Positions 16,741 to 31,046 of a stretch of DNA of 64,000 nt are shown in pieces; position 1 is the first letter of the stretch, and every line of letters begins with the position of its first letter. The DNA lies in contig JBIPMW010000308.1 in NCBI GenBank assembly GCA_044376455.1, forward strand, positions 8,527 through 72,526, in the 5' to 3' direction. Source of the stretch: Crocinitomicaceae bacterium. GTDB lineage: Bacteria > Bacteroidota > Bacteroidia > Flavobacteriales_D > Crocinitomicaceae. The notes under the pieces were generated by a model. That model searched no databases. It saw only the letters and a list, made by a program, of their open reading frames with translations, and was not told where the DNA came from. The position numbers and the translations under genes are program-made.

Positions 16741-16749
16741 ATTTTTAGG

Positions 16750-17400: not shown

Positions 17401-17434
17401 CGTCTTAATCCTTGCGTGTTTTGCTTACATCTTT

Positions 17435-17480: not shown

Positions 17481-17514
17481 TTCTGAACGCTTGTACTAAG
17501 TATATTTACTCGTT

Positions 17515-17955
17515 ATTATTGTAGATAGATTGTAGATAGGGTGATCGACAATCAAAAGCCTTATAGAGTATAGGTTTTAAGGTTTGTAGATAATGTCGAT
17601 GGACTATAGAGGAAAAAAAGAAAAACAAAAGAATAAACCAGACTGGACAATAAAAAGACTGCAAAAGAAACAAGCAAGGTCAGCAGTAAGGCTGTTAGAT
17701 TGTAATTCGATTGTTAATAACCTTATCTACAATCGAAAGTCTTGCAGGGTATAGGTTTCGAGGTTTGTTTATCTTGTCGATGCCCTATACAGGGGAGAGA
17801 AAAGATAGGGAGAGATAAACGAACTGGACAATAAGGAAGGATAAAAAATCCTGACACGGGGAAATAGAGTAACAATATAAACAAAGTCTAGAAACTATAT
17901 ATATCAATGCTTTTCATTGTTGATCATCTTATCTACAGTCTAATTACAAACTAGC
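17515..17955. repeat. ORF-free repeat arm R1 (TTGTAGATA 9-mers, two ~75-80-bp units, TATATATATCAA motif)
   Basis: Exact 9-mers at 17519, 17530 and 17584, plus a reverse-complement copy at 17724. Units at 17547-17620 and 17723-17805 match R3 units in inverted orientation. Confidence 0.8.
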
Positions 17956-17958
17956 AAA

Positions 17959-17986
17959 ATAACCCCTATGAGTCCATAGGGGTTAT
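17959..17986 (-). terminator. intrinsic terminator after antirepressor-like gene
   Basis: ATAACCCCTATG-agtc-CATAGGGGTTAT with T-rich flanks. Confidence 0.7.
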
Positions 17987-18005
17987 TTGGGTTTAGGTAT
18001 TTTTA

Positions 18006-18737
18006 CTAGATCAGATTTTTGTATTTATTTGCTTCCGCTCGTTCCGCTTGACATTTAGCCGTCAGTTCAGAAAAAGCTAATCCGATATTTTCGTAGTCTT
18101 GAAGTCTTTGTTCAAACAAAGCGACTCGGCTGTAAAGCTTCGCAATCTTACCCGATTGAATTTCGTTTGAGTCTTTTAAGCACAATATCTCTAGAGTAAG
18201 TTCTGCAATCTTGTCTTTTTGAAGCTCAACTAATTCTAATAACGACTCTTGAGTCTCTCTCAACCCATTGATCATTCCCACAGAGGCAAGTGTTGAGTTT
18301 AGGCAATGTTTTCTTAGCCGTTCGTTGTCTTTGGTCAGTTGGGCGACTTGACACTCAAGCTTCTCTGTTGACTGTAAAACGGAATAACTTCCAGTTTTTC
18401 GGATTGAAGGAAGAACCTCCTGTACTACCCAATCCTGAAAAGGTTCTGATTGAGGCTTACGGCTAGTAAGAACTAATCGGTAGAGTCCAGACTCTGAAAC
18501 GACTACCATTTCTCGGTTTTGACCTGACACGGTTATTAACCGGGTCAGCTTTTCGTAGCCCTTTAACCGAGAATACGCTGTAGATGAGTCCTTAACTTCT
18601 AGTACATTGCAAACATCTTTACCGATAAACCACGGATTCCCGTCAATCAGGGTCACTCGAATTTCTTGAGTGTTAAACTGAAACGGGACAATATTTACAC
18701 TATTTTGATCAAATTCCTGTAAACTAATATTAGCCAT
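18006..18737 (-). CDS. BRO-N domain antirepressor-like protein with C-terminal coiled coil
   Basis: ..VPFQFNTQEIRVTLIDGNPWFIGKDVCNVLEV.. is a BRO-N-type N-terminus. The C-terminal half is heptad-rich. Confidence 0.75.
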   Translation of the reverse strand: MANISLQEFDQNSVNIVPFQFNTQEIRVTLIDGNPWFIGKDVCNVLEVKDSSTAYSRLKGYEKLTRLITVSGQNREMVVVSESGLYRLVLTSRKPQSEPFQDWVVQEVLPSIRKTGSYSVLQSTEKLECQVAQLTKDNERLRKHCLNSTLASVGMINGLRETQESLLELVELQKDKIAELTLEILCLKDSNEIQSGKIAKLYSRVALFEQRLQDYENIGLAFSELTAKCQAERAEANKYKNLI

Positions 18738-18768
18738 GATTTACTCTAGAGTAGTAATTGTGGTCAGT

Positions 18769-18787
18769 CCCCTGTTTAGAGCAGGGG
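18769..18787 (-). promoter_or_regulatory. conserved 5' leader hairpin (CCCCTG / CAGGGG)
   Basis: Same position and flanks (TATGCCCC..GGGGACTrACCA) as the hairpin at 29347-29364, with one compensatory base-pair change. Confidence 0.55.
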
Positions 18788-18825
18788 CATATTAGTATTG
18801 TACCACTTTAAATAATCAATTATCT

Positions 18826-18851
18826 CCCAATACAGAATTTTCTGTATTGGG
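18826..18851. promoter_or_regulatory. 26-bp palindrome CCCAATACAGAA-TT-TTCTGTATTGGG upstream of BRO-like gene
   Basis: Perfect 12-bp arms. The half-site TCTCCCAATA is shared with the six promoter/operator modules. Confidence 0.5.
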
Positions 18852-18980
18852 GAATCTGGACACAGAAAAAACGAGAATTAGGGAACCTGCTAACAAAGAT
18901 AACAAACCAATAAAACTTATATATATCAATACTTTCCACTGTCAATACCCTTGCTAACAATCTGTTAACGATATTAACTA

Positions 18981-19009
18981 AAAACCCGTCAATCAATTGA
19001 CGGGTTTTT
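18981..19009 (-). terminator. intrinsic terminator
   Basis: AAAACCCGTCAAT-ca-ATTGACGGGTTTT followed by a T run on the minus strand. Confidence 0.75.
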
Positions 19010-19010
19010 A

Positions 19011-19256
19011 TTAATTGAATTTTTCGTATTCTCTTAATATTATTTGGGTTGCCTCCTCAATTTGTTTTCCTTTTGATAGTAAGTTGAGAATTTTAACTAG
19101 AACTTGCCTGACTCGTTCTTTTCCTATCCCTAATTCTTTGGTAGTTGATGCCACTTTAAAGCGATAGTTCCGATGCCGGCAAGTTACAGGCACTGGGTCA
19201 AGATTGTTGTTTCTAGCCCACACCAGATAAATGTAGGCTTGTCTAGCTGTAATCAT
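19011..19256 (-). CDS. small HTH protein resembling sigma-70 region 4
   Basis: ..TKELGIGKERVRQVLVKILNLL.. resembles the region 4.2 pattern LGVSRERVRQIE. Confidence 0.45.
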   Translation of the reverse strand: MITARQAYIYLVWARNNNLDPVPVTCRHRNYRFKVASTTKELGIGKERVRQVLVKILNLLSKGKQIEEATQIILREYEKFN

Positions 19257-19307
19257 TTTTTGTTTTCTGTAGTAGTCATGATTTGTCTCCTTATGTGTTT
19301 TGTTTTA

Positions 19308-19321
19308 CTGATAACTGATAA
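19308..19321 (-). repeat. CTGATAA heptamer repeat, 2 copies
   Basis: ctgataa ctgataa, in an intergenic position. Confidence 0.6.
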
Positions 19322-19326
19322 AAACT

Positions 19327-19932
19327 TTATTGTGGTTTTTCCCAATTTGATTCAGAAAATCCCATTTTCCAGGCCAATTCTTTAATTTTTGGCTGTACTT
19401 CGGCGTGGATGGGAGCCTTGCCTAAAATTATTCTTGTTGCAGTGTCATAATTTTTTTCAGGATCTTCATTGTATTGGAAGTAATATTCGCTGAGATGCTC
19501 GCTTGCATATTCCTGAATAATAGAATTAATATAAGCAATGGCGCGAGTGCCATTTTCTTGAATCTCTTTTACAGAAGGAAATCGGCTTAAAAGAGAGGGT
19601 GATAATTCAAAATCAGGAAAAGCAAAAGCTATCCTGGGAAGAAGATCAATTTCAATTTCCCATCTTTTCTTTTGAGGATTCCATGCAGGCTTTTTGTCAT
19701 AAAAATAGTGTGCATTTTTCAGTCGATCAACTATACCTGGATCATACTTAGGAGTGGTAAGGGAAGCTTTAATATTGCCATCCTTGAAAAAAATTAATCC
19801 GATCTGGCCTTTTGGTAATTTTGCTAGTTGCCGATCTAGCTTTCGCAAAGTTTCTGGGATCAGCGATTCGTACCATTCCCGCATTATGCGGGAAGTTTCT
19901 TCTATTTGGCTTTCAAAGTTGTAGTTTTCCAT
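19327..19932 (-). CDS. hypothetical protein
   Basis: 201-aa ORF with CGGAGA upstream. No motif recognised. Confidence 0.6.
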   Translation of the reverse strand: MENYNFESQIEETSRIMREWYESLIPETLRKLDRQLAKLPKGQIGLIFFKDGNIKASLTTPKYDPGIVDRLKNAHYFYDKKPAWNPQKKRWEIEIDLLPRIAFAFPDFELSPSLLSRFPSVKEIQENGTRAIAYINSIIQEYASEHLSEYYFQYNEDPEKNYDTATRIILGKAPIHAEVQPKIKELAWKMGFSESNWEKPQ

Positions 19933-19997
19933 GATAGGTAATCTCCGTGTGTTTTGTTTTTACTGATAACTAATTAAATGCTTTACAATAGAAAATA

Positions 19998-20582
19998 TCA
20001 ATTACTAAAATCAATACTGTTTCTATTTTCGATCCACCACTTAGCAGAAATAGGGATTTCGATTTCTTTTTTCCATGCACTTACAATCTCTTGTAAGTGT
20101 TGTAAAGCTATATTTTTTGCCCATTTCACTTGTTTTTCGCTTCCTTGAAACTCAGTAATTTCTACCCAGTTTATTGCATCTTCTAAGTCACTTTCGGAAG
20201 GAATGCCAAAAGTATAATATCCGCTTTCGTTTTTTTTAACTTCAACTGGAAGTTTATCCGATGTTTCCATATCTAGTTTTTGTTCGATTTGTAATTCTCG
20301 CCAAAAATTGGCAATAATCCAGTCAGCCATTTCTTTAAAATCTTTTTGTTCACGGCACGAATACCAGTAATCAATGTCGTTGTTTTTTTGCCACCAGTAA
20401 TAAAAAGCGTCCCAGATTTCTTGCCGCGTTTCTTCAGTAAGAAGAAGATTGATTCGAGTAAGTACCTTTCCTCGATAGGAATCAAGGGAAGCAATAGATC
20501 GGTGATTAAAGTTTTTTGAGCGATCAAAAAAGATTTCGGAATTTATGCGATCAATTATGGGATTAGTAGAAGGGAAAAACAT
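19998..20582 (-). CDS. hypothetical protein
   Basis: 194-aa ORF with AAGAGGA upstream. Confidence 0.6.
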   Translation of the reverse strand: MFFPSTNPIIDRINSEIFFDRSKNFNHRSIASLDSYRGKVLTRINLLLTEETRQEIWDAFYYWWQKNNDIDYWYSCREQKDFKEMADWIIANFWRELQIEQKLDMETSDKLPVEVKKNESGYYTFGIPSESDLEDAINWVEITEFQGSEKQVKWAKNIALQHLQEIVSAWKKEIEIPISAKWWIENRNSIDFSN

Positions 20583-20634
20583 TGATTTGTCCTCTTGTGT
20601 TTTGCTTACTTTTCTAATATAGATCGAATCTCTC

Positions 20635-20675
20635 GATAGGTGTTGGCGGAGTGTGACAGTTTATCAAGTGTCACA
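20635..20675 (-). promoter_or_regulatory. conserved 41-bp block with inverted repeat TGTGACA-N10-TGTCACA (copy 1)
   Basis: Nearly identical to 21157-21197. It lies about 40-60 nt upstream of a TATATT element and the shared GTAAGCAAAACAC leader. Confidence 0.45.
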
Positions 20676-20699
20676 ATCTATTAACTTCTAAAGATACCC

Positions 20700-20737
20700 T
20701 AAAACAATAACCCCAATGCCAGTAAAGCATTGGGGTT
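20700..20737 (-). terminator. intrinsic terminator
   Basis: AACCCCAATGC-7 nt-GCATTGGGGTT followed by ATTGTTTT on the minus strand. Confidence 0.65.
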
Positions 20738-20758
20738 AGACCGATTTTAATCTAGATT

Positions 20759-21109
20759 TTATCTGATTAATTTATCAAGGTTGTGTCCTTTTTTACGAAG
20801 CCAATCCCATGCGTCGCCAGGACAATTACACCCATCGAGCCACATCTTAATTATTAGCTTGATAAACCCGTAACCGGTGAGACTGTCAACTTTATTTTCA
20901 ATTTCAACAGACGCCCGCCCAGTGCGGATATACATAGCAATCCCGTAAAGAATGCCGTCCCACTCACACCATTGCTTACTGTCAATTACGCCATCTTTTC
21001 GCATATTTTCTAAGGTACGGCATAAATGCCGATTGACTTTTTCCCGTTTAACGCGGGTAGTCCACTCAGCGTAGTTGAGAATGTCTTTAGCGAAAGATTG
21101 AATTAACAT
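20759..21109 (-). CDS. hypothetical protein
   Basis: 116-aa ORF with no motif recognised. Confidence 0.55.
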   Translation of the reverse strand: MLIQSFAKDILNYAEWTTRVKREKVNRHLCRTLENMRKDGVIDSKQWCEWDGILYGIAMYIRTGRASVEIENKVDSLTGYGFIKLIIKMWLDGCNCPGDAWDWLRKKGHNLDKLIR

Positions 21110-21156
21110 AGGAAACCTCGGTTTTGTTTACTTTTTTATAGTAGATCGGTTTCTTT

Positions 21157-21197
21157 GATAAGTGTTGGTGGAGTGTGACAGTTTATCAAGTGTCACT
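21157..21197 (-). promoter_or_regulatory. conserved 41-bp block with inverted repeat TGTGACA-N10-TGTCAC (copy 2)
   Basis: Overlaps the stop codon of the Mom-like gene and lies upstream of 20759-21109. Confidence 0.45.
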
Positions 21198-21818
21198 ATG
21201 GGTATCTACTTTCTTAGCTTGTTTGACATCATCTTTTTTGGGGTACGGAAGGGATAAACGGCTGATTTGTTTTCTAGTTTTTTTATCTAAAGGATACAAA
21301 TATTTGTGTTTACTTGATCCTTTTACTGCTCGTGCCTCTGGATACTTTTTTACTCCTCCCATAGAAGAAAGGGTTCGTCCGTGCATTCTTTTTCCTTTTA
21401 AAATATACTCAGTCGGTTGCTTCATGCGACCTACATATATCCAGTTACCAGCTTGATAAATAACGCCTAAATGGTTTTGTGCAGTGTCCGCATAAGAAAT
21501 AATTAATTTTAAGCCAACACAATGATTTTTTAGTAAATTAATTGACTTTGAAACTATTTGAGTAACAGGTGATTGATGTTTCTTTAATGCTACTCTAACT
21601 AACTCACAGCATTCAAGACTGAGTAAACCTTACGGTTTACTCAGATTATTATTTGCGCCAAGACCAAAAACAACAGCACCGATAAACTCTTCATTTTCCC
21701 ACACACCTATTTTAACAAGTTTACTAGCCGGTATAGTTTTAGAATAATGATAGTTTTGACAAGCGTATTTTGCGGCTTCATAACTACAAAAAGCAACTTT
21801 TAATTCTACTTTATCCAT
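21186..21818 (-). pseudogene. Mom-like GNAT-fold protein interrupted by one in-frame TAA (pseudogene or recoded gene)
   Basis: The N-part ..YHYSKTIPASKLVKIGVWENEEFIGAVVFGLGANNNLSKP* and the C-part GLLSLECCELVRVAL..LIISYADTAQNHLGVIYQAGNWIYVGR.. are in the same frame. ATG 21818 overlaps the end of the ParB-like gene. Confidence 0.6.
21619..21644 (-). other. perfect 11-bp hairpin with GUAA tetraloop that contains the in-frame UAA
   Basis: The minus strand reads CTGAGTAAACC-GTAA-GGTTTACTCAG. Confidence 0.85.
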
Positions 21819-22422
21819 TAGTCCATTCATGCCCACATTTAGGACAAATAGTAGGATTTTTGACATCTAATCGAGGTTGTTCTTCTTCGCTTGGTTGAAA
21901 ATCAGGGGAATCATCATAATTTTCATCCGAAGCATTTAAAGCTTCTAGGATTGAATTTAAATCGCCGATTACTCCTAAATTTTCCCCTTTTTCATCAAGG
22001 TATTCAGCTTGATGAATTAGTAAGTCAGGGTCAAAAAGCTTTAATTCTGTAGCAAGGTCAAGCCCCGCCCCGTGAATCGTAGAATGATTGTGAATAATCG
22101 AGTATTTTGTAGCTTGAGCCTCATTTTTAGCGTGAACTCCTACTAAAATAGGAACCATCCACTCCCCATCATTGTCAATATCTATACCTCTAGGACGATC
22201 TATTTTTCGCTTTTTAATTGCTAATAGTGCGGCACACCGATCATGACCCTCAGTAATCCCCCCTTTTCCGCCGTTTAAGCTCGGATCGTAGCCAATTGGG
22301 TCTTTAAATCCCAATTCCAATATTGAAGCTATTGTGTTTTCAGTGGCGTGTTTTTTGGAATTACCCTTTAATTGTTTTAAATCGCAAAGCCGTCGATACT
22401 CAATTTCTAATTTATCTGTCAT
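21811..22422 (-). CDS. ParB-like nuclease domain protein with C-terminal zinc ribbon
   Basis: ..GFKDPIGYD....ITEGHDRCAALLA.. fits the ParB-nuclease pattern, and CPKCGH lies at the C-terminus. Start moved to MTDKLEIEY. Confidence 0.6.
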   Translation of the reverse strand: MTDKLEIEYRRLCDLKQLKGNSKKHATENTIASILELGFKDPIGYDPSLNGGKGGITEGHDRCAALLAIKKRKIDRPRGIDIDNDGEWMVPILVGVHAKNEAQATKYSIIHNHSTIHGAGLDLATELKLFDPDLLIHQAEYLDEKGENLGVIGDLNSILEALNASDENYDDSPDFQPSEEEQPRLDVKNPTICPKCGHEWTNG

Positions 22423-22463
22423 GATTGATGTAAGATTAAATAACTCTACTACTATAATAACCA

Positions 22464-23231
22464 ATGGTTATAACTAATCGAGGCAGAAAACGCACTTATT
22501 CTATCCATGAAGAGGTAATCGAGTTTACCAAGTATCCTATCTGGGAACAGCAAGAACTAGAAACCCCTGACTGGTTTGAAAGATTTCAGATTTTTTACCT
22601 TCCTATTCCGTCAGGCTATCGCACTTTAAATCGAGCCTACGGTAACTGCGGGGAAGCTTCTGGGGAACAGATAGAGAAGACTAAATTTAAACGAGCTAAG
22701 ACTGTTCCGGACGACTGGCAGTTAGCCCATAAAAACTATCGGTGGGAAGAGCGAGCGAAAGCCTATTGGCTTTTGAAGATTCAAGAACAACAAGCTTACA
22801 CTGATAGTATTTTACGAGAAGTCAGAGAAAGAACTCTAAAGATTACTTTAAAAAACCTTGAAAAAATTGAACAGATGACCAATTATCCGATTTCTCGCCG
22901 TCGGATAGATTCTGTGGACGAATCGGGACGACCAATTGCTATAACAATTGAACCTAACGGGAATTGGAGCCATAGAGACGCGGTGACTATGGCTAAAACG
23001 TTAACCGATACCTTTGAAAAAGTTTTAGGTTTTGATACGATTGAGTATGCAATTAATATCGTTCAAAAGCACGGATTAGCTGTCATTGACCCTGACGGAA
23101 AGCTTATAGGACATTCTGATACGGAGGGGCCCGATGACGGACTAACCTCGATTATTCGTAATAGTGCCGAATTTGATGATGATGATGTAATGGTTCCCAC
23201 TAGGATAAATAATGATGATGAGAGCGAGTAA
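22464..23231 (+). CDS. putative terminase small subunit
   Basis: 255-aa ORF that overlaps the terL start by 20 nt. It has a W..ERAKAYW motif and an acidic tail. Confidence 0.5.
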   Translation: MVITNRGRKRTYSIHEEVIEFTKYPIWEQQELETPDWFERFQIFYLPIPSGYRTLNRAYGNCGEASGEQIEKTKFKRAKTVPDDWQLAHKNYRWEERAKAYWLLKIQEQQAYTDSILREVRERTLKITLKNLEKIEQMTNYPISRRRIDSVDESGRPIAITIEPNGNWSHRDAVTMAKTLTDTFEKVLGFDTIEYAINIVQKHGLAVIDPDGKLIGHSDTEGPDDGLTSIIRNSAEFDDDDVMVPTRINNDDESE

Positions 23232-24864
23232 ATTATCATTAAAAAATCTATCTAAGATAAAAACAGCGACCGAAAAATATCGACTTGTTAATACCAAAGA
23301 AGAAATTGTTTTTCCTCAATTACAAGAGGGAAAACAAGCTTTATTTGGGGAAATTGATGCTGATGTAATCTTCTATGGCGGAGGCGCAGGAAGTGGCAAG
23401 AGCGCCGGGTTATTAATTGATTTTGCCCGTCAAGAATTTATTAGTAATCCTGACTATCGGGCTGTCATATTTCGTCGGACGTATCCTGAATTTACTCAAG
23501 CAGGTGGACTAATAGATGAAAGCCAAAAAATTTATCAAGCAGTGAAAGGTAATTTTATTGAAAAGCCTCCAGGGTGGCGATTTCCACTCGGATCAAAAAT
23601 ATCTTTTAGGCATTTACAATACGAAAAAACTGTCTATGTTTACCAGGGCGGACAAATTACGAGGATAGGTTTTGACGAATTAACTCACTTTACAGAAGAG
23701 CAGTTTTTTTACCTTCTTTCTAGAAACCGTTCGGTATCAGGCATTAAACCAGCCGTTAGGGCAACCTGTAACCCCGATGCTGACTCATGGGTAGCTAATT
23801 TTATCTCTTGGTGGATTGATCCTAAAACTGGGTACGCTACTGAAGAAAGAGGGGGAATAGTTCGATATTTTATTAGACGAGAAAACACAGTCCACTGGGC
23901 TGATACTAAAGAAGAATTAATTGATAAATTTAGTCTTAAAGATGAACTTTTTGACCTTATTCCTAAAGATAAAAGAGAAAAGTTTTTATCAAATATAGAT
24001 ACTAATATTACACCAGATAAGCTGATTAAAAGTTTTACTTTTATTCCTGCTACGATTTTTGATAATCCAGCTTTAATCAGGGTTAACCCTACCTATTTGG
24101 CTAACCTTTACGCTTTACATCCTATCGAACGTGAAAGACTTCTCAGAGGTAACTGGAAAGTTAAATATGAAGCTGGTACGGTATTTGATCGGACTTGGTT
24201 TGAGATTTTCGATAAAGTACCCAATGATTGGAAGTTAATAGGTAAAGTGAGATTCTGGGATTTAGCGGCAACGGCTAAAGAAAATGCCGAAAACTACCAT
24301 TGTTACACCAGTGGGACTCTTGTTTATAAATACCAAAGAATTAAGAATACACTGCCAGATTTAACTGAAATCAAGGAATTTGCTTATGTAATTGCTGACA
24401 ATATCTGTGAACAGAAAAAGGTCGGGGAAGTGGAATTAATGCTTAAAAATACTGCTGAATTAGACGGGAGAACCGTAGCTGTAAGGTGGGAACAGGAAGG
24501 GGGATCGAGTGGTAAATTTGTTGAGAATACGATCACTAATGTTATCAGAGAAAATCACCCGAACCATGATATTAAGGCGATAGCACCTCAAGGGGATAAA
24601 CTTACTAGGGCTTTACCCGTGGCAACAGCAGCTAGTCGAGGACAAATCTTTATTTTAAGAGATGGGACATGGAATACTAGGTTCCTAAATGCTTGTCAGG
24701 GCTTTGATGGTAGCAAAAAAACACCCCCGACTAATGACATCGTGGATAGTCTATCGGGGGCTTTTTATTCTCTTGAAAATGAATTTCAGGGACATGAGGA
24801 AGTTATTAGCACGATTATTGATACTGTTCCCCTCAATCGGTTTAGGGTCGGTTTTAGTCGCTAG
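23212..24864 (+). CDS. terminase large subunit
   Basis: Walker A FYGGGAGSGKS, FDELTHF (Walker B-like), and a C-terminal nuclease-like half. 550 aa. Confidence 0.85.
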   Translation: MMMRASKLSLKNLSKIKTATEKYRLVNTKEEIVFPQLQEGKQALFGEIDADVIFYGGGAGSGKSAGLLIDFARQEFISNPDYRAVIFRRTYPEFTQAGGLIDESQKIYQAVKGNFIEKPPGWRFPLGSKISFRHLQYEKTVYVYQGGQITRIGFDELTHFTEEQFFYLLSRNRSVSGIKPAVRATCNPDADSWVANFISWWIDPKTGYATEERGGIVRYFIRRENTVHWADTKEELIDKFSLKDELFDLIPKDKREKFLSNIDTNITPDKLIKSFTFIPATIFDNPALIRVNPTYLANLYALHPIERERLLRGNWKVKYEAGTVFDRTWFEIFDKVPNDWKLIGKVRFWDLAATAKENAENYHCYTSGTLVYKYQRIKNTLPDLTEIKEFAYVIADNICEQKKVGEVELMLKNTAELDGRTVAVRWEQEGGSSGKFVENTITNVIRENHPNHDIKAIAPQGDKLTRALPVATAASRGQIFILRDGTWNTRFLNACQGFDGSKKTPPTNDIVDSLSGAFYSLENEFQGHEEVISTIIDTVPLNRFRVGFSR

Positions 24865-25060
24865 TAGTCCGTCCACAATGCCAAACTATACCAGGAGTAT
24901 TGACACGTTCTATTTCGATTGGATTCTTGTTTTTACTCCCAAAATATTTGTTCCAATACCAAATAGCTTCTGTTTCTGCTTTTAATTCTGATTCTGATTC
25001 TTTTGTTGCGATAAGAAGACTAAACGATGTGACTGAATCTTTAATTAGGTACAGGCTCAT
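24854..25060 (-). CDS. hypothetical protein
   Basis: 68-aa ORF with GAGGA 5 nt upstream. Last gene of the LuxR-like/HigA-like operon. Confidence 0.4.
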   Translation of the reverse strand: MSLYLIKDSVTSFSLLIATKESESELKAETEAIWYWNKYFGSKNKNPIEIERVNTPGIVWHCGRTTSD

Positions 25061-25089
25061 AAATCCTCGTTAATAATTGTAAAAATTTC

Positions 25090-25368
25090 CTAATCGATTT
25101 GATTTGCTAGAGATTCTCGGTAAAGTCTTTCGCGCTCTATCCAAAAATGAGCAGTAGGTACGCCTAAAGCTAGTCCCATTTTGTAAGCAATACGAATAGT
25201 AATTCCTGCTTTACCTTTTATTAGTTGATTGATAGTTTTTTTATGTAACCCCATTCGATTAGCAAATTCAGCCCTAGTTATTTTTCTTTCTTTTAGGATT
25301 TCGGCAAGGGTTTCTCCTGGTGGAGAGATAAAATCTGGCATATATTTATTCTCAATAGTATTAGTCAT
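25090..25368 (-). CDS. HigA-family XRE-type HTH protein
   Basis: PGETLAEILKERKITRAEFANRMGLHKKTINQLIKGKAGIT fits the HigA antidote pattern. Confidence 0.7.
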   Translation of the reverse strand: MTNTIENKYMPDFISPPGETLAEILKERKITRAEFANRMGLHKKTINQLIKGKAGITIRIAYKMGLALGVPTAHFWIERERLYRESLANQID

Positions 25369-25382
25369 AGATTTTCGTTAAA

Positions 25383-25799
25383 CTACATATTTTTCCATAT
25401 TCCAGGCGGAATTAGACATTTTTGAACACCCCATAAAGCGCATTGTTCTTCTTCGTCATCGTCAATCATATCTTTGGCTATATCCCATCCCGTATGCTGA
25501 TAGAAAAAGAACATAAACTTAGGTTGAGTCGAAATATTAAATTTTTTTAAAATTGCCGTTGTATAATCATTTACTATTTCAGTTTTTAGTAAAAGTTTTT
25601 TAGCAATTTCTTTGTTATCAAACCCACAAAGAAAATAAAAACAGACCTTTTTCTCTAGAAGAGATAATTGATACCAGCAAAGCCAAAAATGACGATGGCT
25701 TGGAGACATACATTCTTCAATTTCTTCTTCGATTGTTTCTTCATCTTCTTCAATTTCTTCTTCGATTGTTTCTTCGATTTCTTCTATGTATTCTTCCAT
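25383..25799 (-). CDS. LuxR/GerE-type HTH protein with poly-acidic repeat N-terminus
   Basis: LSLLEKKVCFYFLCGFDNKEIAKKLLLKTEIVNDYTTAILKKF. The N-terminus (EEIEETIEEEIEEDEETIEEEIEE) is encoded by a 33-bp tandem repeat at 25715-25775. Start chosen at the ATG with AGGAG upstream. Confidence 0.5.
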   Translation of the reverse strand: MEEYIEEIEETIEEEIEEDEETIEEEIEECMSPSHRHFWLCWYQLSLLEKKVCFYFLCGFDNKEIAKKLLLKTEIVNDYTTAILKKFNISTQPKFMFFFYQHTGWDIAKDMIDDDEEEQCALWGVQKCLIPPGIWKNM

Positions 25800-25818
25800 T
25801 GTTTTACTCCTCATTTGA

Positions 25819-26316
25819 TTACCTACCAAATAAGAAAGATGCGGCGCCAAGTAAATACACCCATTCTTCTTCAAGCATTAATTCCGTTTTAGAAGGGTCG
25901 GCTATATCAAATAAACAAAAGTCAACTTCATCTATACGATCACTGTCGTAATATAACTCAATATTAGTATTTGGAAATACTGTCATGTATGCAAATTTAA
26001 ACGTGGCATTTTGGCGATTTTTGCACGTTAATATAGATGAATGATTTGGATTCTCCCACGGAATACGATCTCTAAAGCTTTGATAGGTTACTTTTAACTT
26101 CCAGTCAATAACTGAGGGAAAGTCTTCCTTAAAATGAGTTTCTTTTACCCATTTAGCGATTTCATCAACTATCCATCCCTGTTTTTTTTGGATAAAATAA
26201 TGGATTCCTTCTGAGTATTCAAAAGGATAAATTAACTTTGTTTTGTACCAGGTTATCTCGAACTCTTGCGGTGCAGAGTTAATTTTAGGGAATTGTCCTA
26301 TGTCTATCATTGTCAT
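25819..26316 (-). CDS. DUF6876-like protein, paralog A
   Basis: ..LIYPFEYSEGIHYFIQKKQGWIVDEIAKW.. is shared with paralog B. The family assignment is from memory. Confidence 0.5.
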   Translation of the reverse strand: MTMIDIGQFPKINSAPQEFEITWYKTKLIYPFEYSEGIHYFIQKKQGWIVDEIAKWVKETHFKEDFPSVIDWKLKVTYQSFRDRIPWENPNHSSILTCKNRQNATFKFAYMTVFPNTNIELYYDSDRIDEVDFCLFDIADPSKTELMLEEEWVYLLGAASFLFGR

Positions 26317-26340
26317 TGTTTTACTCCTAAGTTATTTTTA

Positions 26341-26367
26341 CTGATAACTGATAACTGATAACTGAAA
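26341..26367 (-). repeat. CTGATAA heptamer tandem repeat, 3-4 copies
   Basis: ctgataa x3 followed by ctgaaac. Confidence 0.8.
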
Positions 26368-26706
26368 CTAATACTCAGAGGATAGCAATAAAACACCGTC
26401 ACACAACCAAAGCGTGACCTCTGAAAGAGGAAAATCGGTAAATGGGATCTGCTGACTTATGGCAGATTCATTGTCTTGTTCGCAGGTAAGGACTGCGGAT
26501 TTATCGGAGTTAACTATTAGCATCCAGAACTGAATCTGGCTTGAATCAAGTTCTTTTTGCCATGACGCAATTGCATCAAGTATCCAATAGCCTCCCCCAT
26601 TTTCTACTAAGTATTTAATACCGTCGGTGTACTCAAACGGGTAAAGGGGATTAGTATAGTAATTTTCCGTGCCATGAAAATTACTAAGATTTTCTAGTTT
26701 GTTCAT
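26368..26706 (-). CDS. DUF6876-like protein, paralog B
   Basis: FHGTENYYTNPLYPFEYTDGIKYLVENGGGYWILDAIASW. Start moved to MNKLENL, because the track start reads through the heptamer repeat. Confidence 0.5.
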   Translation of the reverse strand: MNKLENLSNFHGTENYYTNPLYPFEYTDGIKYLVENGGGYWILDAIASWQKELDSSQIQFWMLIVNSDKSAVLTCEQDNESAISQQIPFTDFPLSEVTLWLCDGVLLLSSEY

Positions 26707-26733
26707 TTTTTTTACTCCTAAATAAGTTGTTAG

Positions 26734-26747
26734 CTGATAACTGATGA
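26734..26747 (-). repeat. CTGATAA heptamer repeat, 2 copies
   Basis: Part of a 45-bp block (ttttactcctaaataagttgttagctgataactga) duplicated at 27003-27045. Confidence 0.6.
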
Positions 26748-26757
26748 CCACTATCTA

Positions 26758-27003
26758 TTAGTAGGTATTAAGAACAGTATAAATCCATTCCTTTATGTCT
26801 GGTGACAACTCAGATGTCGTAATAATCGGAGGCAGATTTAAATCAGGATAGAACATTACATAGTATTGTTCAAGGCTTTCAAATGCTGAACAAGGCAATA
26901 CATTTTCATAAGCAGTCAAAACTGTCATTATGTGCTTTTGTTTAACAAAAAGCGTGATTTTACCTACGTTTAAAGAGATACCTTCAATGCGAATACCCTT
27001 CAT
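26758..27003 (-). CDS. hypothetical protein
   Basis: Start moved to MKGIRIEG with AGGAG upstream. Confidence 0.5.
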   Translation of the reverse strand: MKGIRIEGISLNVGKITLFVKQKHIMTVLTAYENVLPCSAFESLEQYYVMFYPDLNLPPIITTSELSPDIKEWIYTVLNTY

Positions 27004-27029
27004 TTTTTTACTCCTAAATAAGTTGTTAG

Positions 27030-27045
27030 CTGATAACTGATAACT
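27030..27045 (-). repeat. CTGATAA heptamer repeat, 2 copies
   Basis: ctgataa ctgataa ct. Confidence 0.6.
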
Positions 27046-27056
27046 ATGCTGACAAT

Positions 27057-27431
27057 TTAAGGTCTTTGTAAAAACAGACAACCTAAAATAACCCCAGGGT
27101 TATTTTTGTCCCGGACTAATGCGCCAGGAGCAAGGCAGTCCACACGACCTACTTTAGCGGCCGCGGCAGCCACTAATCCAGAGACGATGTAGTAAACATC
27201 CTTCTGATACTCAGGGAGTCCCTCGATCTCCCCATAAATGACGGATTCAATAGGAATCCCGTTAATTTCCCCTGCGGGGGAATTGCTCATGGAAACACGG
27301 GGAAGAACCCCTGACGGGGGGATTTCTTTGACAACTTCGACGGTTTCAGCAAGAAACTGTCTTTTGGAGTCTTGCTCGACTCCTTTTTTGGAAACTATTG
27401 TTATTACATGGGGGGTTGCGTTAATAATCAT
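27057..27431 (-). CDS. hypothetical protein
   Basis: 124-aa ORF (MIINATPHVITIV..) downstream of promoter copy 6 and the triple SD repeat. Confidence 0.6.
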   Translation of the reverse strand: MIINATPHVITIVSKKGVEQDSKRQFLAETVEVVKEIPPSGVLPRVSMSNSPAGEINGIPIESVIYGEIEGLPEYQKDVYYIVSGLVAAAAAKVGRVDCLAPGALVRDKNNPGVILGCLFLQRP

Positions 27432-27433
27432 TA

Positions 27434-27464
27434 CCTTAATCTCCTTAATCTCCTTAATCTCCTT
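27434..27464 (-). repeat. 9-bp tandem repeat AAGGAGATT x3.4 (triple Shine-Dalgarno)
   Basis: The minus strand reads AAGGAGATTAAGGAGATTAAGGAGATTAAGGTA-ATG. Confidence 0.85.
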
Positions 27465-27483
27465 GTTTTACTTGTCTAGACTC

Positions 27484-27530
27484 ATCTTACGATATTCTCC
27501 CAATAAAGTCAAGTATTTGGGAGAATTATT
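27484..27530 (-). promoter_or_regulatory. promoter/operator module copy 6
   Basis: Minus strand reads TTGACT, a 17-nt spacer, then TAAGAT, with inverted repeat ATTCTCCCAA..TTGGGAGAAT. Confidence 0.6.
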
Positions 27531-27623
27531 TCTAAACGTTTGTACTGATAACGGCTTGCGTGAGCGGCGGACAGATAAAACCGATATAACGGGAAAAGTT
27601 TCACCCGTCCGCTCCACGCTTTG

Positions 27624-27815
27624 TTAGTCCGCTTCCTTGATTAGCACGGCTTCTTTGATTTCACCTAGCGGATACATGCCATCATCATCTGTTGTAAGAC
27701 GCCACTGCTGTCCTACCTTTGCGCCGGGGAACCATTTCGGACTAGCAGACAAGCCTTCATTATGGGTGATACTATTTTTGGAAACCTTCGTAATTGTGAC
27801 AATTCGAGTGTTCAT
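27624..27815 (-). CDS. hypothetical protein
   Basis: 63-aa ORF with AAAGGAGAAAA upstream. Confidence 0.5.
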   Translation of the reverse strand: MNTRIVTITKVSKNSITHNEGLSASPKWFPGAKVGQQWRLTTDDDGMYPLGEIKEAVLIKEAD

Positions 27816-27842
27816 TTTTCTCCTTTTAGAAAAGCGGCCTAA

Positions 27843-27870
27843 CTGATAACTGACAACTGATAACTGATAA
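27843..27870 (-). repeat. CTGATAA heptamer tandem repeat, 4 copies
   Basis: ctgataa ctgacaa ctgataa ctgataa. Confidence 0.8.
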
Positions 27871-27872
27871 CT

Positions 27873-28319
27873 TTAAAACTCTTGCCATGTCATCGGGTCG
27901 GTTGCTGGCTCACTGTACCGACTTAAATCCGACGGTTCGTCATCGTCATAGATAAAATCGTCGTCGGGTTCGTTTGAAGGAACCAGATATGGGCATCCGC
28001 CCACCATTACCCAATCTTCGTATTTACGAGAAGAAATAGGTAATTGAGAAGGAGCAGGACGCGCAGGTGTAATAAATTCGATTGCGGGTAATTCGCAGTT
28101 GGGGATTTTTTTATCAGGATCGAATCCGCGCCACAATTTACCGTTGAGTGCATCAAACCACCATTCTTTACCAGTCTGCTGGCAAGTGACTCGGAGGGTT
28201 GTTACCTGACCTTTTCCCCACACTTCAAGGGATACGCGATGTTTTTGATCTTTGGCAACCATAGTAAAATTGCCGGACATAATGGGGATTTTGACAGAAG
28301 CAGAATTAGATGATATCAT
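27873..28319 (-). CDS. hypothetical protein
   Basis: 148-aa ORF with an acidic C-terminus. Confidence 0.55.
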   Translation of the reverse strand: MISSNSASVKIPIMSGNFTMVAKDQKHRVSLEVWGKGQVTTLRVTCQQTGKEWWFDALNGKLWRGFDPDKKIPNCELPAIEFITPARPAPSQLPISSRKYEDWVMVGGCPYLVPSNEPDDDFIYDDDEPSDLSRYSEPATDPMTWQEF

Positions 28320-28481
28320 GGCTTAGACCTGATAAGGGTTGACGGAAAGGCGATCACACTAATTTGCAGTTGGAGGTGGTCGTCTTTCTCTATATCTGTA
28401 TATTACCGCGAAGTCAGTAATATTGTCAAGCATTATTCTAAAAAAAGTTATAATAAATTGTAGAGACACAAAACTAATACA

Positions 28482-28685
28482 ATGGTACTAAAAAACAGAG
28501 TCAAGGAATTTACGGAAGAAAGAGGGATCACAGTCTATAAATTCATTCAACAAACAGGCATCGCAATGTCCACGGGGTACAAACTGTCCCAAAATCCTGA
28601 TCAGCTTCCTTCTATAGCAGTTTTACAGGCAATCTGTGATAGGTATGAAGTACAGCCTAACGAAATTGTTTATCGCATTGATTGA
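28482..28685 (+). CDS. XRE/Cro-type HTH regulator
   Basis: 67 aa. ..RGITVYKFIQQTGIAMSTGYKLSQNP.. Divergent from the 27873-28319 operon. Confidence 0.75.
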   Translation: MVLKNRVKEFTEERGITVYKFIQQTGIAMSTGYKLSQNPDQLPSIAVLQAICDRYEVQPNEIVYRID

Positions 28686-28705
28686 AAGTGTGATACAATA
28701 ATAAA

Positions 28706-28776
28706 GCCGGGGGAGTAAAACGGTTCACGCAAGTCTCATAAGCTTGAAACAGTGGGTTCAATTCCCATCCCCGACA
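28706..28776 (+). tRNA. tRNA with CAU anticodon (Met, or Ile2 if lysidinylated)
   Basis: Hand-folded. Acceptor GCCGGGG/CCCCGAC has a C2:A71 mismatch. Anticodon arm is CAAGT-CTCATAA-GCTTG. T arm is GTGGG-TTCAATT-CCCAT. The D arm is weak, position 8 is G, and no CCA is encoded. Confidence 0.55.
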
Positions 28777-28780
28777 CTGA

Positions 28781-29074
28781 TTAAACAAAATCCCAGTTAA
28801 GAGAATTATTAAATCCTTGTATATCAGCAAGGGCTTTTTCTCCTGATCGGGTGAGCCGATAGTATCTTTTTCTAGCACCGCCTCTATCGCTAGATCGTTC
28901 AGTTCCCCATCGGGATTTAATAAGTTCTTTTTCCTCTAGCTTTTGGAATACAGGGTAAAATGAGCCAATATCAAGGCTTTTACCTTTAATATCAGCTATA
29001 GATTGAATTGTCTGTAATCCCGACAATTCTTTATTGTAAAGAGTCCGCAAAACAAGGATTTCTGTGTTTGTCAT
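28781..29074 (-). CDS. PadR-family transcriptional regulator
   Basis: ..GSFYPVFQKLEEKELIKSRW......RKRYYRLTRSGEKAL fits the PadR winged-helix pattern. Confidence 0.8.
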   Translation of the reverse strand: MTNTEILVLRTLYNKELSGLQTIQSIADIKGKSLDIGSFYPVFQKLEEKELIKSRWGTERSSDRGGARKRYYRLTRSGEKALADIQGFNNSLNWDFV

Positions 29075-29078
29075 TGCT

Positions 29079-29318
29079 TTAAAGTTTTCTAATCGGTCTT
29101 TTTCTGGGTGATTGTCGATCTTGAATTAAATCTTGGTTTTCCTCAAGGAAAGACTCTAGCTGATCATCGGGAATTCCTGTGACTTCTCCGGTTTTCAGTA
29201 AAACAATAACCCTGGATTGTGGTGGTTTGACGACATTCGACTTGAAATCAGGAGGAATACCTGGTAATCGGTCAATTTTTGCTGAATACCCACCACATCG
29301 GTCAAATTTGTCAGGCAT
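29079..29318 (-). CDS. hypothetical protein
   Basis: 79-aa ORF co-oriented with the PadR gene. Confidence 0.5.
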   Translation of the reverse strand: MPDKFDRCGGYSAKIDRLPGIPPDFKSNVVKPPQSRVIVLLKTGEVTGIPDDQLESFLEENQDLIQDRQSPRKRPIRKL

Positions 29319-29337
29319 ATTTTAAATACGGTATAAT
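29308..29337 (+). promoter_or_regulatory. sigma70-type promoter TTGTCA-18-TATAAT
   Basis: Read directly from the sequence. It drives 29395-29919. Confidence 0.6.
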
Positions 29338-29346
29338 ATTGGTATG

Positions 29347-29364
29347 CCCCCGCGTTAACGGGGG
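29347..29364 (+). promoter_or_regulatory. conserved 5' leader hairpin (CCCCCG / CGGGGG)
   Basis: Partner of the hairpin at 18769-18787. Confidence 0.55.
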
Positions 29365-29394
29365 ACTAACCAATAAGACTAATCAGGAGTCATT

Positions 29395-29919
29395 ATGGCT
29401 GTTTCTAGTTTACAACGTTTTGATCACGATGGTATCGAGTTAATCATCGATACCCAGACCGGTGAGAGCTTTGCCTCAATTAGTGGATATGCCCGGATGT
29501 CAGGGAAAATACCTTCGACTGTTTCTCGCCGTTTGACTATGAGTGGTTTGCGTGAAAAAGGTCTTGAACAGGCTCAAATCGAGACAGCAAGTGGGTTACG
29601 AACCGTTGCATTGATACCAGAAAATTTAATCTGCCAGTGGCTAATTAAAGACAATCACGAACTAGCCCTAAAAGTAATGCAGTTGGGCGTTCGCTTATTC
29701 CTTCACACATTAGCGGGTTTTCAGGTCAAAAGTGAGGCAATTGAGACTAACAAGCGACTTGATAGCCAAATTGCTGAATTAACTGCCAAAATCGAAAAAT
29801 TGGACTACAAAGAAGTTGACTATATTGACGAGATACTTGACTTAAAAGAGCAAATCAAAAAGCTTGAGAGCGAGAACTCTACCCTAGAAGAACAAATCGA
29901 GTTAATGGGGGGATATTAG
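29395..29919 (+). CDS. antirepressor-like (KilA-N/BRO-type N-domain) protein with C-terminal coiled coil
   Basis: MAVSSLQRFDHDGIELIIDTQTGESFASISGYARMSG.. has the same start pattern MA..SLQ.FD and the same architecture as 18006-18737. Confidence 0.55.
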   Translation: MAVSSLQRFDHDGIELIIDTQTGESFASISGYARMSGKIPSTVSRRLTMSGLREKGLEQAQIETASGLRTVALIPENLICQWLIKDNHELALKVMQLGVRLFLHTLAGFQVKSEAIETNKRLDSQIAELTAKIEKLDYKEVDYIDEILDLKEQIKKLESENSTLEEQIELMGGY

Positions 29920-29983
29920 GTGAAAAGCATTTGTTTACTGCTAAGATAAAAGCGATAACTGTTGCATAACTGATACAACTAAC

Positions 29984-30011
29984 CCCCTGTAGGGACTACA
30001 GGGGTTTTTAT
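29984..30011 (+). terminator. intrinsic terminator
   Basis: CCCCCTGTAG-gga-CTACAGGGG followed by TTTTT. Confidence 0.8.
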
Positions 30012-30016
30012 TATCT

Positions 30017-30095
30017 AATGTTCGGAGCTTAGTGGGTAATGTTCGGAGCTTAACAGCCTAATGTTCGGAGCTTAGTGGGTAATGTTCGGAGCTTG
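30017..30095 (+). repeat. four direct 15-bp iterons TAATGTTCGGAGCTT (period 21-22 bp)
   Basis: Exact copies at 30017, 30038, 30060 and 30081, with spacers agtggg / aacagcc / agtggg. Confidence 0.9.
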
Positions 30096-30099
30096 GCTA

Positions 30100-30815
30100 G
30101 TTTGTTAGTCTGTAAATAGATTGTAGATAGATTGTAGATAGAAATATTAACAATGGAATCCTTGATATATATAGATTTCAGACTTTGTTTATATTGTTAG
30201 CCTTATCCCCGTGTCGGGTTTTTTTGTGTTCTTATTGCTGACTTCGATTAATTAGATTGTTAGTTTGTAAATAGATTGTAAATAAGGGTATTTACAAAGA
30301 CAGAAAAGATGAAAGCTATATATATCAATACTTTCATCCTTTTTTTACTTCTTTGTAGATATTGTTAATGATTACCCCGTGTGTGTTTTTTGCTTTACTG
30401 TTGAGACTGTTTCTTTTTATTGCTAACCTTGTTTGGTTTCTTTATCTTTCTCTCCTCCCTATAAGACATCGACAATATCTACAAAGTCTAAAATCTAATC
30501 AGGGTAAGGCTTTCAATTGTAGATAAGCCTATTTACAATCAAACACAAAAAGAACAAATTAGCGATGAATCACTTTTCACCTCTAAAATTCCCTGATTAG
30601 CCAAAAATACGGCATTTTGTCAATAGAGTCAGTTTTGCGTTTAATCACTTTTATTGCTGACCTTGCCGTACATCTTTTACTCTATTTTCTTTTTTCCTCT
30701 GTAAGGCATTGACAATATCAACAAAGTCTAGAACCTTTATAGGGTAAAGGTTTCGATTGTAGATAGGGTTATCTACAATCTATCTACAATCTAACAATCG
30801 CTCTGTAGTATTTGT
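30100..30815. repeat. ORF-free repeat arm R3 (TTGTAGATA 9-mers, ~75-bp units, TATATATATCAA motifs)
   Basis: Forward 9-mers at 30122, 30133, 30354, 30518 and 30758. Reverse-complement copies at 30477, 30771 and 30782. TTGTAAATA variants are also present. Units at 30451-30526 and 30692-30766. Confidence 0.85.
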
Positions 30816-31046
30816 AATATATGTAATACGGATAGATAAAAAAAAACGCTCCCTCGTAAAGCGGTAGTCCAAGTCAATCTTTTTAAGAATTTTCTCACAG
30901 TCCTAATAGAATTGTCAAGGCAAAAAAATAACCGCGCTCCCGGGTGCGGTATAAAAGAGCGCGGCGGTGTAAATATGTTTTCCTTTTAAGTATATCTCAA
31001 AAAAGAAAATTCAATATATAATACAATAAACAGTACAATCTCGTTA

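Follow-up and report, generated by a model that had tools for sequence, protein, structure and literature searches.

A conserved family of box-bearing, promoter-like intergenic repeats in mirror-image arms around the terminase genes of an uncultured freshwater cyanophage lineage

A stretch of 64,000 nucleotides from contig JBIPMW010000308.1 (assembly GCA_044376455.1), here called the window, holds most of a phage genome in which two intergenic arms lie on either side of a 12-kb island that carries the terminase genes terS and terL. The arms were found to be built from copies of a single non-coding unit of about 95 nt, which forms a real and conserved repeat feature and is arranged in mirror image on the two sides. 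Each unit combines an array of 11-bp boxes with a -10-like hexamer, and the same cassette recurs inside the island and at further loci in relatives. Tentatively, the units are read as operator-flanked promoter cassettes of a phage regulon, placed as opposed pairs at module borders; this reading is possible and is the one preferred here. The source is an uncultured freshwater (lake-type metagenome) cyanophage lineage with a genome of ~82-90 kb.

A preliminary description of this DNA, made from its letters, had noticed inverted sub-blocks shared by two arms. A repeat search of the window reproduced all of them, at 73-81% complementarity. Inverted matches join 17518-17623 to 30685-30790 (106 nt, 74% complementary), 17693-17793 to 30696-30796 (101 nt, 73%), 17706-17802 to 30447-30543 (97 nt, 73%), 17528-17609 to 30459-30540 (82 nt, 76%) and 17859-17912 to 30157-30210 (54 nt, 81%). 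Alignment placed all arm sub-blocks, as well as the piece at 18896-18978, in one family of ~95-nt non-coding units. The ~75-80-bp and ~70-bp blocks that had been listed separately are thus present but do not form distinct families; they are variants A and B of one unit, in the order A A B on the left and B B A A on the right. An nhmmer profile built from the repeats detected exactly eight copies (E 1e-11 to 5e-22; Table 1) and no ninth copy anywhere in the window, and copies within the genome are only ~70-80% identical. No open reading frame (ORF) of 60 aa or more was found in 17401-18005, 18738-19010 or 29920-31046, together ~2.0 kb, which agrees with the earlier estimate of more than 1.5 kb of non-coding DNA. 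Furthermore, the box GATTGTNRATA occurs 13 times in the window against 0.51 expected, and 10 of these 13 occurrences fall inside the arms.

Read in the direction from the boxes through the hexamer to the fourth box, the left arm presents two rightward A-type units followed by a leftward B-type unit, and the right arm presents two rightward B-type units followed by two leftward A-type units. The arms are therefore mirror images, with the B-type units on the island side pointing outward, toward the long tail and tail-fibre operons, and the A-type units distal and pointing inward. Two face-to-face pairs result, L2/Lb and Rb2/R1. Such a module is ~260 nt long and symmetric, with box arrays at both ends and conserved motifs in its centre, and the promoter-like elements converge ~150 nt apart. 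The arms had been said to bracket the island; their mirror arrangement holds, but the bracket is incomplete, as the cassette is also present inside the island (unit Lc) and at two or more loci beyond the window.

The internal order of a unit, 5' to 3', is TTGTTAG, box 1, box 2, box 3, hexamer, box 4 and half-box. Boxes 1 and 2 are direct and lie 11 bp, or one helical turn, apart, with the consensus GATTGTnrATA, and the two central positions of each box are free to vary. Box 3 is inverted and follows box 2 after a 4-nt spacer, and boxes 2 and 3 together make a 26-bp imperfect palindrome, as in GATTGTAGATA-GGGT-TATCTACAATC. A -10-like hexamer of the TAnnnT type (TAGGTT, TAGATT or TAGCTT, hence TAGnTT) stands ~27-30 nt beyond the palindrome and precedes the downstream box by exactly 11 nt in 149 of 185 distinct units, of both types; box 4 is then followed, 9 nt later, by the half-box (CTTTGTAGATATTGT). 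The B-type units (Lb, Lc, Rb1 and Rb2) carry a near-invariant TTGATATATATAG directly upstream of and overlapping the hexamer, a (TA)4-5 tract, and a T-run 45-50 nt downstream; from their sequence they look like strong promoters. The A-type units (L1, L2, R1 and R2) are without the TA tract, and their next 76 nt are 72-80% purine on the sense strand, compared with a window mean of 47% and with only 0.12% of window segments that reach 75%. The first ~22 nt of every putative transcript are conserved (AGACTTTGTnnATATTGT), and this stretch is itself composed of boxes.

The direction assigned to the units is likely, since a consensus promoter scan matched Lb in that direction, Lc carries a perfect TTGACA and lies ~160 nt upstream of a Bro gene with which it is co-directional, and the opposite direction would require a spacer of 21-22 nt between its best hexamers. 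Small inversions were observed within the arms. The 19-nt core of Rb2 in the window is the reverse complement of the form found in relatives and is flanked by GAAAG/CTTTC, and the palindrome spacers flip among close relatives between AACCTT and AAGGTT and between AAGGGT and ACCCTT; template switching in quasi-palindromes may account for them.

The dyad symmetry of the units behaves like a pair of protein half-sites rather than a hairpin. Among 93 distinct 26-bp palindromes, 84.8% of cells are paired versus 84.4% in shuffles, the covariation score is 0.083 versus 0.083, and pair 7-20, the main variable pair, is unpaired in 50 of the 93 sequences; it is this lack of covariation that points to half-sites. 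Together with the enrichment of boxes, it favours a protein-binding array among the several roles that had been proposed for the arms. The arms had also been called highly structured, a view that did not hold up: when folding was compared with that of shuffled sequence, the putative transcripts folded no better, except for one box-derived stem. At the module centre the consensus fold is essentially empty on both strands (alifold -2.3 and 0.0 kcal/mol), and the arm repeats have no match in Rfam.

Several other products or structures were tried and rejected. Conserved mini-ORFs (MDYRGKK, MPYTGER; MxYRG...) or a type I toxin were set aside as the ATG is lost in L2 of relatives and frames, lengths and stops vary among relatives and paralogues. 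The T-run of the B-type units as an intrinsic terminator has no stable hairpin, and its GC stem is absent in some relatives. Hairpin promoters of the N4 type were likewise discarded, as the giant ORF at 1-8747 is a tape-measure/lysozyme gene and not a virion RNA polymerase, and the palindrome is under no pairing constraint. A literature search for the box strings returned nothing relevant.

The architecture of the arms is kept in related phages, whose contigs are designated here by L numbers. The order of a 29395-type gene, B, B, A, A and the operon that starts at 31047 was found in every relative that spans the right arm (~68 contigs), and the order A, A, B of the left arm in at least 25. The arms are 82-87% identical between the window and its relatives, versus 54-79% at the four-fold degenerate sites of TerL, terS, PadR and 27873-28319. 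Around the left arm, homology with relatives is confined to two blocks, 17397-18006 (arm, promoter and terminator) and 18706-19268 (Lc and its neighbours), with break points at 17397-17445, 17982-18007, 18706 and 19260-19268; no counterpart of 16271-17400, 18007-18705 or 19269-21894 was present in the relatives compared. By these identities, which exceed those of the four-fold sites, the arms are judged to be under purifying selection, and they are positioned exactly at mosaic breakpoints. The gene just inside the left arm is of the Bro type in 13 contigs and an inverted 29395-type paralogue in 12. Such a paralogue stands beside the left arm in about half of the relatives, and the mirror duplication probably took in the regulator gene and the terminator from the start.

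Further loci were identified in these relatives. A third context, just beyond the left end of the window, has a module with a Rha-family gene on one side and the NlpC/P60 and tape-measure genes on the other (L087, L161, L140 and L151, the last from the same 90.5-kb contig as L039 and L096). In a fourth, the module lies between divergent genes near a tail-protein gene (L208 and L238), and contigs of this kind also carry homologues of window genes 61902-63636. The contexts so far number at least 4-5, namely the left arm, Lc, the right arm, the Rha/NlpC locus and the L208-type locus, and extra solo units occur in relatives. One genome holds at least 10 units, probably more, in at least 4-5 clusters, which weakens explanations by a single site (pac/cos, one origin) as well as the 12-kb island as a bracketed object.

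An instructive case is a more distant relative, L042, which has the same layout with another box. Its TerL is 63% identical to that of the window, and its non-coding arms occupy equivalent places around terS/terL (5150-5780 and 13450-14610) and comprise a terminator and a repeat tract as well as a pair of B-type units, 95% alike, and one A-type unit in inverted orientation. The A-type promoter-like stretch aligns with that of R1 in the window, and the right arm is surrounded by a Rha gene and two Bro-N genes. In L042 the box reads GATGTTAG instead, for example in GGATGTTA-N9-TAACATCC, and all but one of the eight copies in the terS/terL locus lie inside the arms; the palindrome takes the variant form GGATGTTATCTGATACCCTAACATCC. 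A changed box in a kept architecture argues for a co-evolving pair of protein and operator, with the protein presumably phage-encoded, and makes a conserved host factor less likely. As IMG/VR contains no second member of the L042 lineage, this argument rests on one sequence.

Possible leads among known host and defence elements are HLR1/RpaB sites, with TTTACAAT-like half-sites, cyanobacterial Pho boxes, with an 11-bp period, and the 3' end of the Cas12a repeat (TTGTAGAT). HIP1 octamers (GCGATCGC), which are typical of many cyanobacterial genomes, occur several times in L042 at 13440-14600, whereas the window has none; the difference may reflect different hosts.

In the preferred reading, one sequence-specific dimeric or oligomeric phage DNA-binding protein would occupy the boxes, cover the -35 region and the start site, and switch the cassette promoters co-ordinately, with the downstream boxes falling near +4 to +25. 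Convergent A-type transcription, or the bound protein alone, would limit read-through across the module borders, and the mirror symmetry of the arms would stem from an old inverted duplication that included the terminator and the adjacent regulator gene. Promoter activity, direction of transcription and identity of the binder are here inferred from the DNA. Candidate binders are the KilA-N-like protein of 29395-29919, the Bro-N protein of 18006-18737 and the Rha protein, as the clusters adjoin Bro-N, Rha or KilA-N-like genes in three contexts; the XRE, PadR, HTH_26 and GerE (LuxR-type) proteins of the island are equally possible.

Each arm had been placed just outside a terminator and an antirepressor-like gene. 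The terminators and the Bro-N domain are confirmed, while for the protein of 29395-29919 only a weak likeness to APSES/KilA-N was obtained, with no DNA-binding match in Pfam. This protein belongs to a lineage-specific family with an invariant-rich N-terminal domain of ~110 aa and a coiled coil. In its AlphaFold model the N-terminal domain has a pLDDT of ~85-90, and among compact structural matches the APSES DNA-binding domain of Mbp1 ranks best (probability 0.85, TM 0.50, E 0.16). KilA-N is considered a relative of APSES among DNA-binding folds. The modelled domain may therefore weakly resemble this fold, a hint rather than a finding given an E-value of only 0.16.

A number of observations weigh against the cassettes as operator-flanked promoters. 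The promoter scan selected only Lb among the eight units, the hexamers of A-type units are weak, and in R2 of the window the hexamer position is taken by AAGGTT. The conserved T-run ~45-50 nt downstream in B-type units comes without a convincing terminator hairpin. Several units have no gene to drive, and the B-type unit of the third locus points into the 3' end of a convergent operon; face-to-face promoter pairs at many loci are not a usual operator layout. In addition, the putative recognition helix of the 29395-29919 family differs among paralogues while the boxes remain constant, and in the fourth context no Bro, Rha or KilA gene is adjacent.

The main rival, itself unlikely, is that the clusters are replication origins or enhancer-origins, with T4 oriF/oriG and herpesvirus oriS among the parallels; an initiator would bind the box arrays, (TA)n would serve as meltable DNA and the purine-rich A-type transcripts would form priming R-loops. 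In its favour, boxes spaced by 11 bp are combined with a nearby palindrome and (TA)4-5 tract, both ends of the symmetric module carry box arrays, and the A-type sense strands have the high purine content given above. The dispersed conserved intergenic clusters next to bro-type genes and rearrangement borders also recall the homologous regions (hrs) of baculoviruses (PMC2830988); these palindrome-plus-repeat clusters are dispersed too, are associated with bro genes and with the borders of rearrangements, and function both as enhancers and as origins (PMC2830988, PMC4535591). However, an origin role, which the preliminary description had listed first, is disfavoured by the DnaA box TTATCCACA, found 17 times with at most one mismatch versus 18.3 expected and nowhere perfect in the arms. 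No initiator gene lies nearby, and the sole replication gene identified, a helicase at 57195-59018, is ~27-40 kb off. Furthermore, 4-5 or more loci would be unusual for a phage of such size, the GC skew, proposed as a possible origin signal, follows gene orientation only, and the A-type units have no TA tract to melt.

Rather less likely still, the cassettes may chiefly be recombination linkers for module shuffling, with regulation secondary, in the manner of the PeSL (promoter-early stem-loop) cassettes of T4-type phages, which are conserved promoter-terminator motifs at indel borders (PMC4122927). In favour of such linkers, homology breaks exactly at the edges of the 17397-18006 and 18706-19268 blocks, the inner gene of the left arm is exchanged between the Bro and 29395 types in the proportions given above, and small inversions occur within the arms. 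Moreover, in L036, which is the same contig as L133, positions 1900-3300 hold an array like that of the right arm (A A B B) between a reversed 31047-type operon and terS-terL, which it joins directly, in a relative orientation opposite to that of the window and with a left-arm-type terminator following. Either the synteny differs in this contig or a rearrangement took place through the arms. An inversion of the island through the arms was considered and rejected, as L036 is the sole opposite contig, comes from a diverged lineage (terS 51% identical) with different gene content, so that its evidence is not clean, and ~68 contigs keep the arrangement of the window. The linker explanation is further opposed by the ~70-80% identity of copies in one genome, which makes them a poor substrate for homologous recombination with each other, by a conservation above the level of four-fold sites and a fixed internal grammar, which speak for a sequence-specific function, and by the absence of the defining PeSL parts from most units.

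A combined possibility, to which we give a smaller chance again, is that the clusters are the phage counterpart of hrs: bound by KilA-N/Bro proteins, they would serve both in transcription control and as R-loop-primed origins with the A-type transcripts as primers, and hence would become recombination borders. If true, the bro-hr association would predate the split of the phage and eukaryotic virus lineages.

It is quite improbable that the face-to-face units express overlapping pairs of small RNAs, as sense/antisense regulators or type I toxin-antitoxin systems, as their functional products. The convergence of promoter-like elements ~150 nt apart, the conserved first ~22 nt of the putative transcripts and the conserved motifs at the module centre would suit such pairs, but the conserved 5' stretch is made of boxes, the mini-ORFs are not conserved, and the Rfam, folding, covariation and consensus-fold results above all tell against the non-coding RNA loci suggested earlier.

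Least probable of all are partition (centromere) sites, pac/cos packaging sites or copies of a miniature mobile element: the linear plasmid-prophage N15 has dispersed inverted-repeat centromeres, the arms flank terS and terL, and the ~260-nt module with terminal inverted box arrays resembles a miniature inverted-repeat transposable element, but no ParA, ParM, integrase or transposase was found among ~95 window ORFs (Pfam, PHROGs; ~21 kb of genome lies outside the window), of the ParB-type proteins one (119 aa) has the N-terminal domain alone and the other is nuclease-like, the clusters stand ~4.5-7 kb from terS and at 4-5 or more loci, and unit positions are fixed in all relatives, which gives no sign of mobility.

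Compared with known systems, the feature would be one of the recognised kinds of regulatory repeat that proteins bind, though its architecture and distribution are unusual. In logic, the closest analogy may be the OL/PL and OR/PR regions of phage lambda. In both cases two mirror clusters of dyad sites flank a segment that encodes DNA-binding regulators, the segment-proximal promoters (here the B-type units) point outward, and the sites overlap the presumed -35 region and start site. The differences are considerable: the arms are 12 kb apart here versus 2.4 kb in lambda; 11-bp boxes, two direct, one inverted and further ones downstream, take the place of three 17-bp operators; the outward promoters are opposed by inward A-type units and the cassette recurs at three or more further places; and the enclosed segment also holds terS and terL, with neither a repressor identified nor a sign of lysogeny. 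Iteron and centromere arrays (parC of plasmid R1, iteron origins) similarly place boxes at intervals of one helical turn to either side of a promoter core, whereas here there are 2-3 boxes per side, one of them inverted, at many loci, and no ParM/ParR or Rep gene was seen.

In genome-wide pattern, baculovirus hrs and the PeSL of T4-type phages appear closest. Like hrs, the clusters are dispersed and intergenic, with 1-8 units of an imperfect palindrome flanked by direct repeats (PMC2830988, PMC4535591); units are closely related within a genome, cluster positions are kept relative to particular genes while orientation varies, and bro-family genes and rearrangement borders adjoin both (PMC2830988, PMC4535591). 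Unlike hrs, they occur in a bacteriophage that uses a bacterial transcription apparatus, have a -10-like hexamer and face-to-face pairing, and come with no IE1 homologue; there is no sequence similarity to hrs, and the likeness is one of pattern only. With PeSL they share the repetition of conserved intergenic cassettes that coincide with indels and gene replacements between close relatives (PMC4122927, PMC2839356). A PeSL, in contrast, consists of a stem-loop, a near-consensus sigma-70 early promoter, and a Shine-Dalgarno sequence with start codon, all pointing the same way; among the units here Lc alone precedes a gene (by ~160 nt), the rest are directed at another unit or at a gene's 3' end, and the cassettes carry protein-type box arrays and form convergent pairs.

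Turning to the neighbours of the arms (Table 1), a separate promoter beside the left arm serves the leftward operon from 17400, and the arms are thus not simply operon promoters. That promoter belongs to another repeat family, D1, which abuts the left arm.

Table 1. Repeat units of the two arms and the island, with adjoining features (positions in the window)
Feature	Position	Strand	Remarks
Unit L1, A-type, left arm	17509-17601	+	nhmmer E 4e-19; boxes 17519, 17530, 17543 (inverted), 17584; candidate -10 TAGGTT 17571-17576; 80% purine downstream
Unit L2, A-type, left arm	17691-17783	+	nhmmer E 6e-21; palindrome GATTGTTAATAACCTTATCTACAATC; TAGGTT 17752-17757; boxes 17765, 17774; faces Lb
Unit Lb, B-type, left arm	17870-17957	-	nhmmer; TTGATATATATAG at 17895-17907; points outward (leftward); promoter scan TCAACA-18-TATAGT
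Unit Lc, solo B-type, inside island	18896-18978	-	nhmmer E 1e-11; perfect TTGACA and TTGATATATATAA; upstream of Bro gene, same direction
Unit Rb1, B-type, right arm	30115-30201	+	nhmmer; direct boxes 30110, 30121, 30132; inverted box 30145; TTGATATATATAG at 30162-30174, TAGATT at 30172-30177; points outward (rightward)
Unit Rb2, B-type variant, right arm	30256-30370	+	nhmmer; 19-nt TA-rich core 30316-30334; faces R1
Unit R1, A-type, right arm	30466-30556	-	nhmmer; TAGATT 30492-30497; 78% purine sense strand downstream
Unit R2, A-type, right arm	30706-30799	-	nhmmer E 5e-22; near-perfect palindrome ATTGTAGATAGGGTTATCTACAAT and one extra box
Promoter of leftward operon from 17400	17435-17463	-	sigma-70-type, TTGACT-17-TATATT, with palindrome ATTCTCCCAAT..ATTGGGAGAA
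Hairpin terminator between left arm and Bro 3' end	17963-17982		CCCCTATG...CATAGGGG; read from sequence; kept in relatives
Bro-N domain gene just inside left arm	18006-18737	-	Pfam Bro-N 8e-21; coiled-coil C-terminus
Gene just inside right arm	29395-29919	+	~110-aa conserved N-terminal domain and coiled coil
Intrinsic terminator of gene 29395-29919	29984-30004	+	terminator scan
21-nt tandem repeat	30016-30094	+	TAATGTTCGGAGCTTAGTGGG, 3.7 copies; close relatives 0 to >6 copies
Terminator-like hairpin between right arm and rightward operon (start 31047)	30847-30863	-	

Other repeats were observed in the same DNA. Copies of D1 lie at 17019-17105, 17413-17499 and 27462-27548, each a minus-strand sigma-70-type promoter (TTGACT-17-CATAAT or TATATT) with a palindrome ATTCTCCCAAT..ATTGGGAGAAT over the -35 region, which is probably the operator for a different regulator. 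What looks like a second, separate regulatory motif family is formed by the heptamer TTATCAG, which stands in 2-5 tandem copies immediately before the Shine-Dalgarno sequence in at least nine genes of the minus strand (13335-13355, 13938-13951, 16725-16738, 19308-19321, 26341-26361, 26734-26747, 27030-27043, 27843-27870 and 41026-41039); such arrays give 13 matches in the window versus 0.01 expected. Repeat family D7, which contains GTGTGACAGTTTATCAAGTGTCAC, has two window copies that are 82% alike (20599-20677 and 21121-21199) and occurs as well in L208 at 4975-5060, upstream of the gene that adjoins the fourth unit cluster. The place of the 21-nt tandem repeat of the right arm is taken in L042 by a G-rich repeat tract. 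A 33-nt repeat (2.8 copies, 90% matches) is found at 25713-25804 inside the GerE-family gene 25383-25874.

The gene content of the island agrees in part with what had been reported. The terminase large subunit, a ParB-like protein (PHROGs match) and Mom were recovered; of the five helix-turn-helix regulators claimed, Pfam supports four (HTH_3, GerE, HTH_26 and PadR), with the XRE protein at 25090-25368 and PadR at 28781-29074, and the tRNA is called by Rfam only (28706-28776, plus strand, 44.2 bits, E 4e-6), as ARAGORN finds no tRNA in the window. TerL is of the T4 type (23212-24864, 550 aa) and terS lies at 22464-23231. The Mom-like gene consists of two minus-strand ORFs, 21186-21425 and 21630-21866, which match positions 141-202 and 2-56 of the Mom profile; the middle of the profile is missing, and metagenome relatives are split likewise. 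The TerL of many relatives (L014-L036 and others) aligns only from residue 64 on, and the TerL ORF of L036 has 958 aa versus 550 aa, which suggests an inserted, possibly intein-like element after about residue 63.

The phage is marked as a cyanophage by a match to NblA, the phycobilisome degradation protein (4e-24), in one of 51 ORFs scanned in 9145-63636. Its host is inferred from this match and from a DNA match to the Ant gene of Microcystis phages, the only one obtained in a phage collection. Also encoded are ribonucleotide reductase, thymidylate synthase, a helicase, a methyltransferase and a protein with an FGE-sulfatase domain; scans of the window ORFs for an integrase, ParA, ParM or a phage RNA polymerase (Pfam, PHROGs) found none. 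ORF 1-8747 (minus strand) runs off the window and exceeds 2915 aa, with tape-measure and lysozyme/peptidase matches, and its homologue in L087 has 3112 aa, a size that implies a very long tail. Among cultured phages, the best TerL match reaches ~40% identity, and a search of 185,579 species-representative genomes gave no close TerL and no prophage copy. Many metagenome contigs (JGI, ENA) carry an identical or near-identical TerL, and IMG/VR relatives lie on contigs of 82-90 kb.

Very little work has been done on how freshwater cyanophages are regulated, and no relative of this lineage is in culture. A cis-element that is conserved, genome-wide and clear in its grammar, together with the divergence of its box in a sister lineage, would offer a handle on a master regulator and its regulon. 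Cyanobacteria are not known to have Rho, so that the insulation of transcription between long operons is a question of consequence for their phages, and the cassette offers a test of it. The arms also allow a test of whether the "antirepressor-like" proteins of the Bro/KilA-N type bind adjacent repeats site-specifically. In practical terms, the cassettes are assembly break points and mosaic borders in the metagenomic contigs of an abundant phage group.

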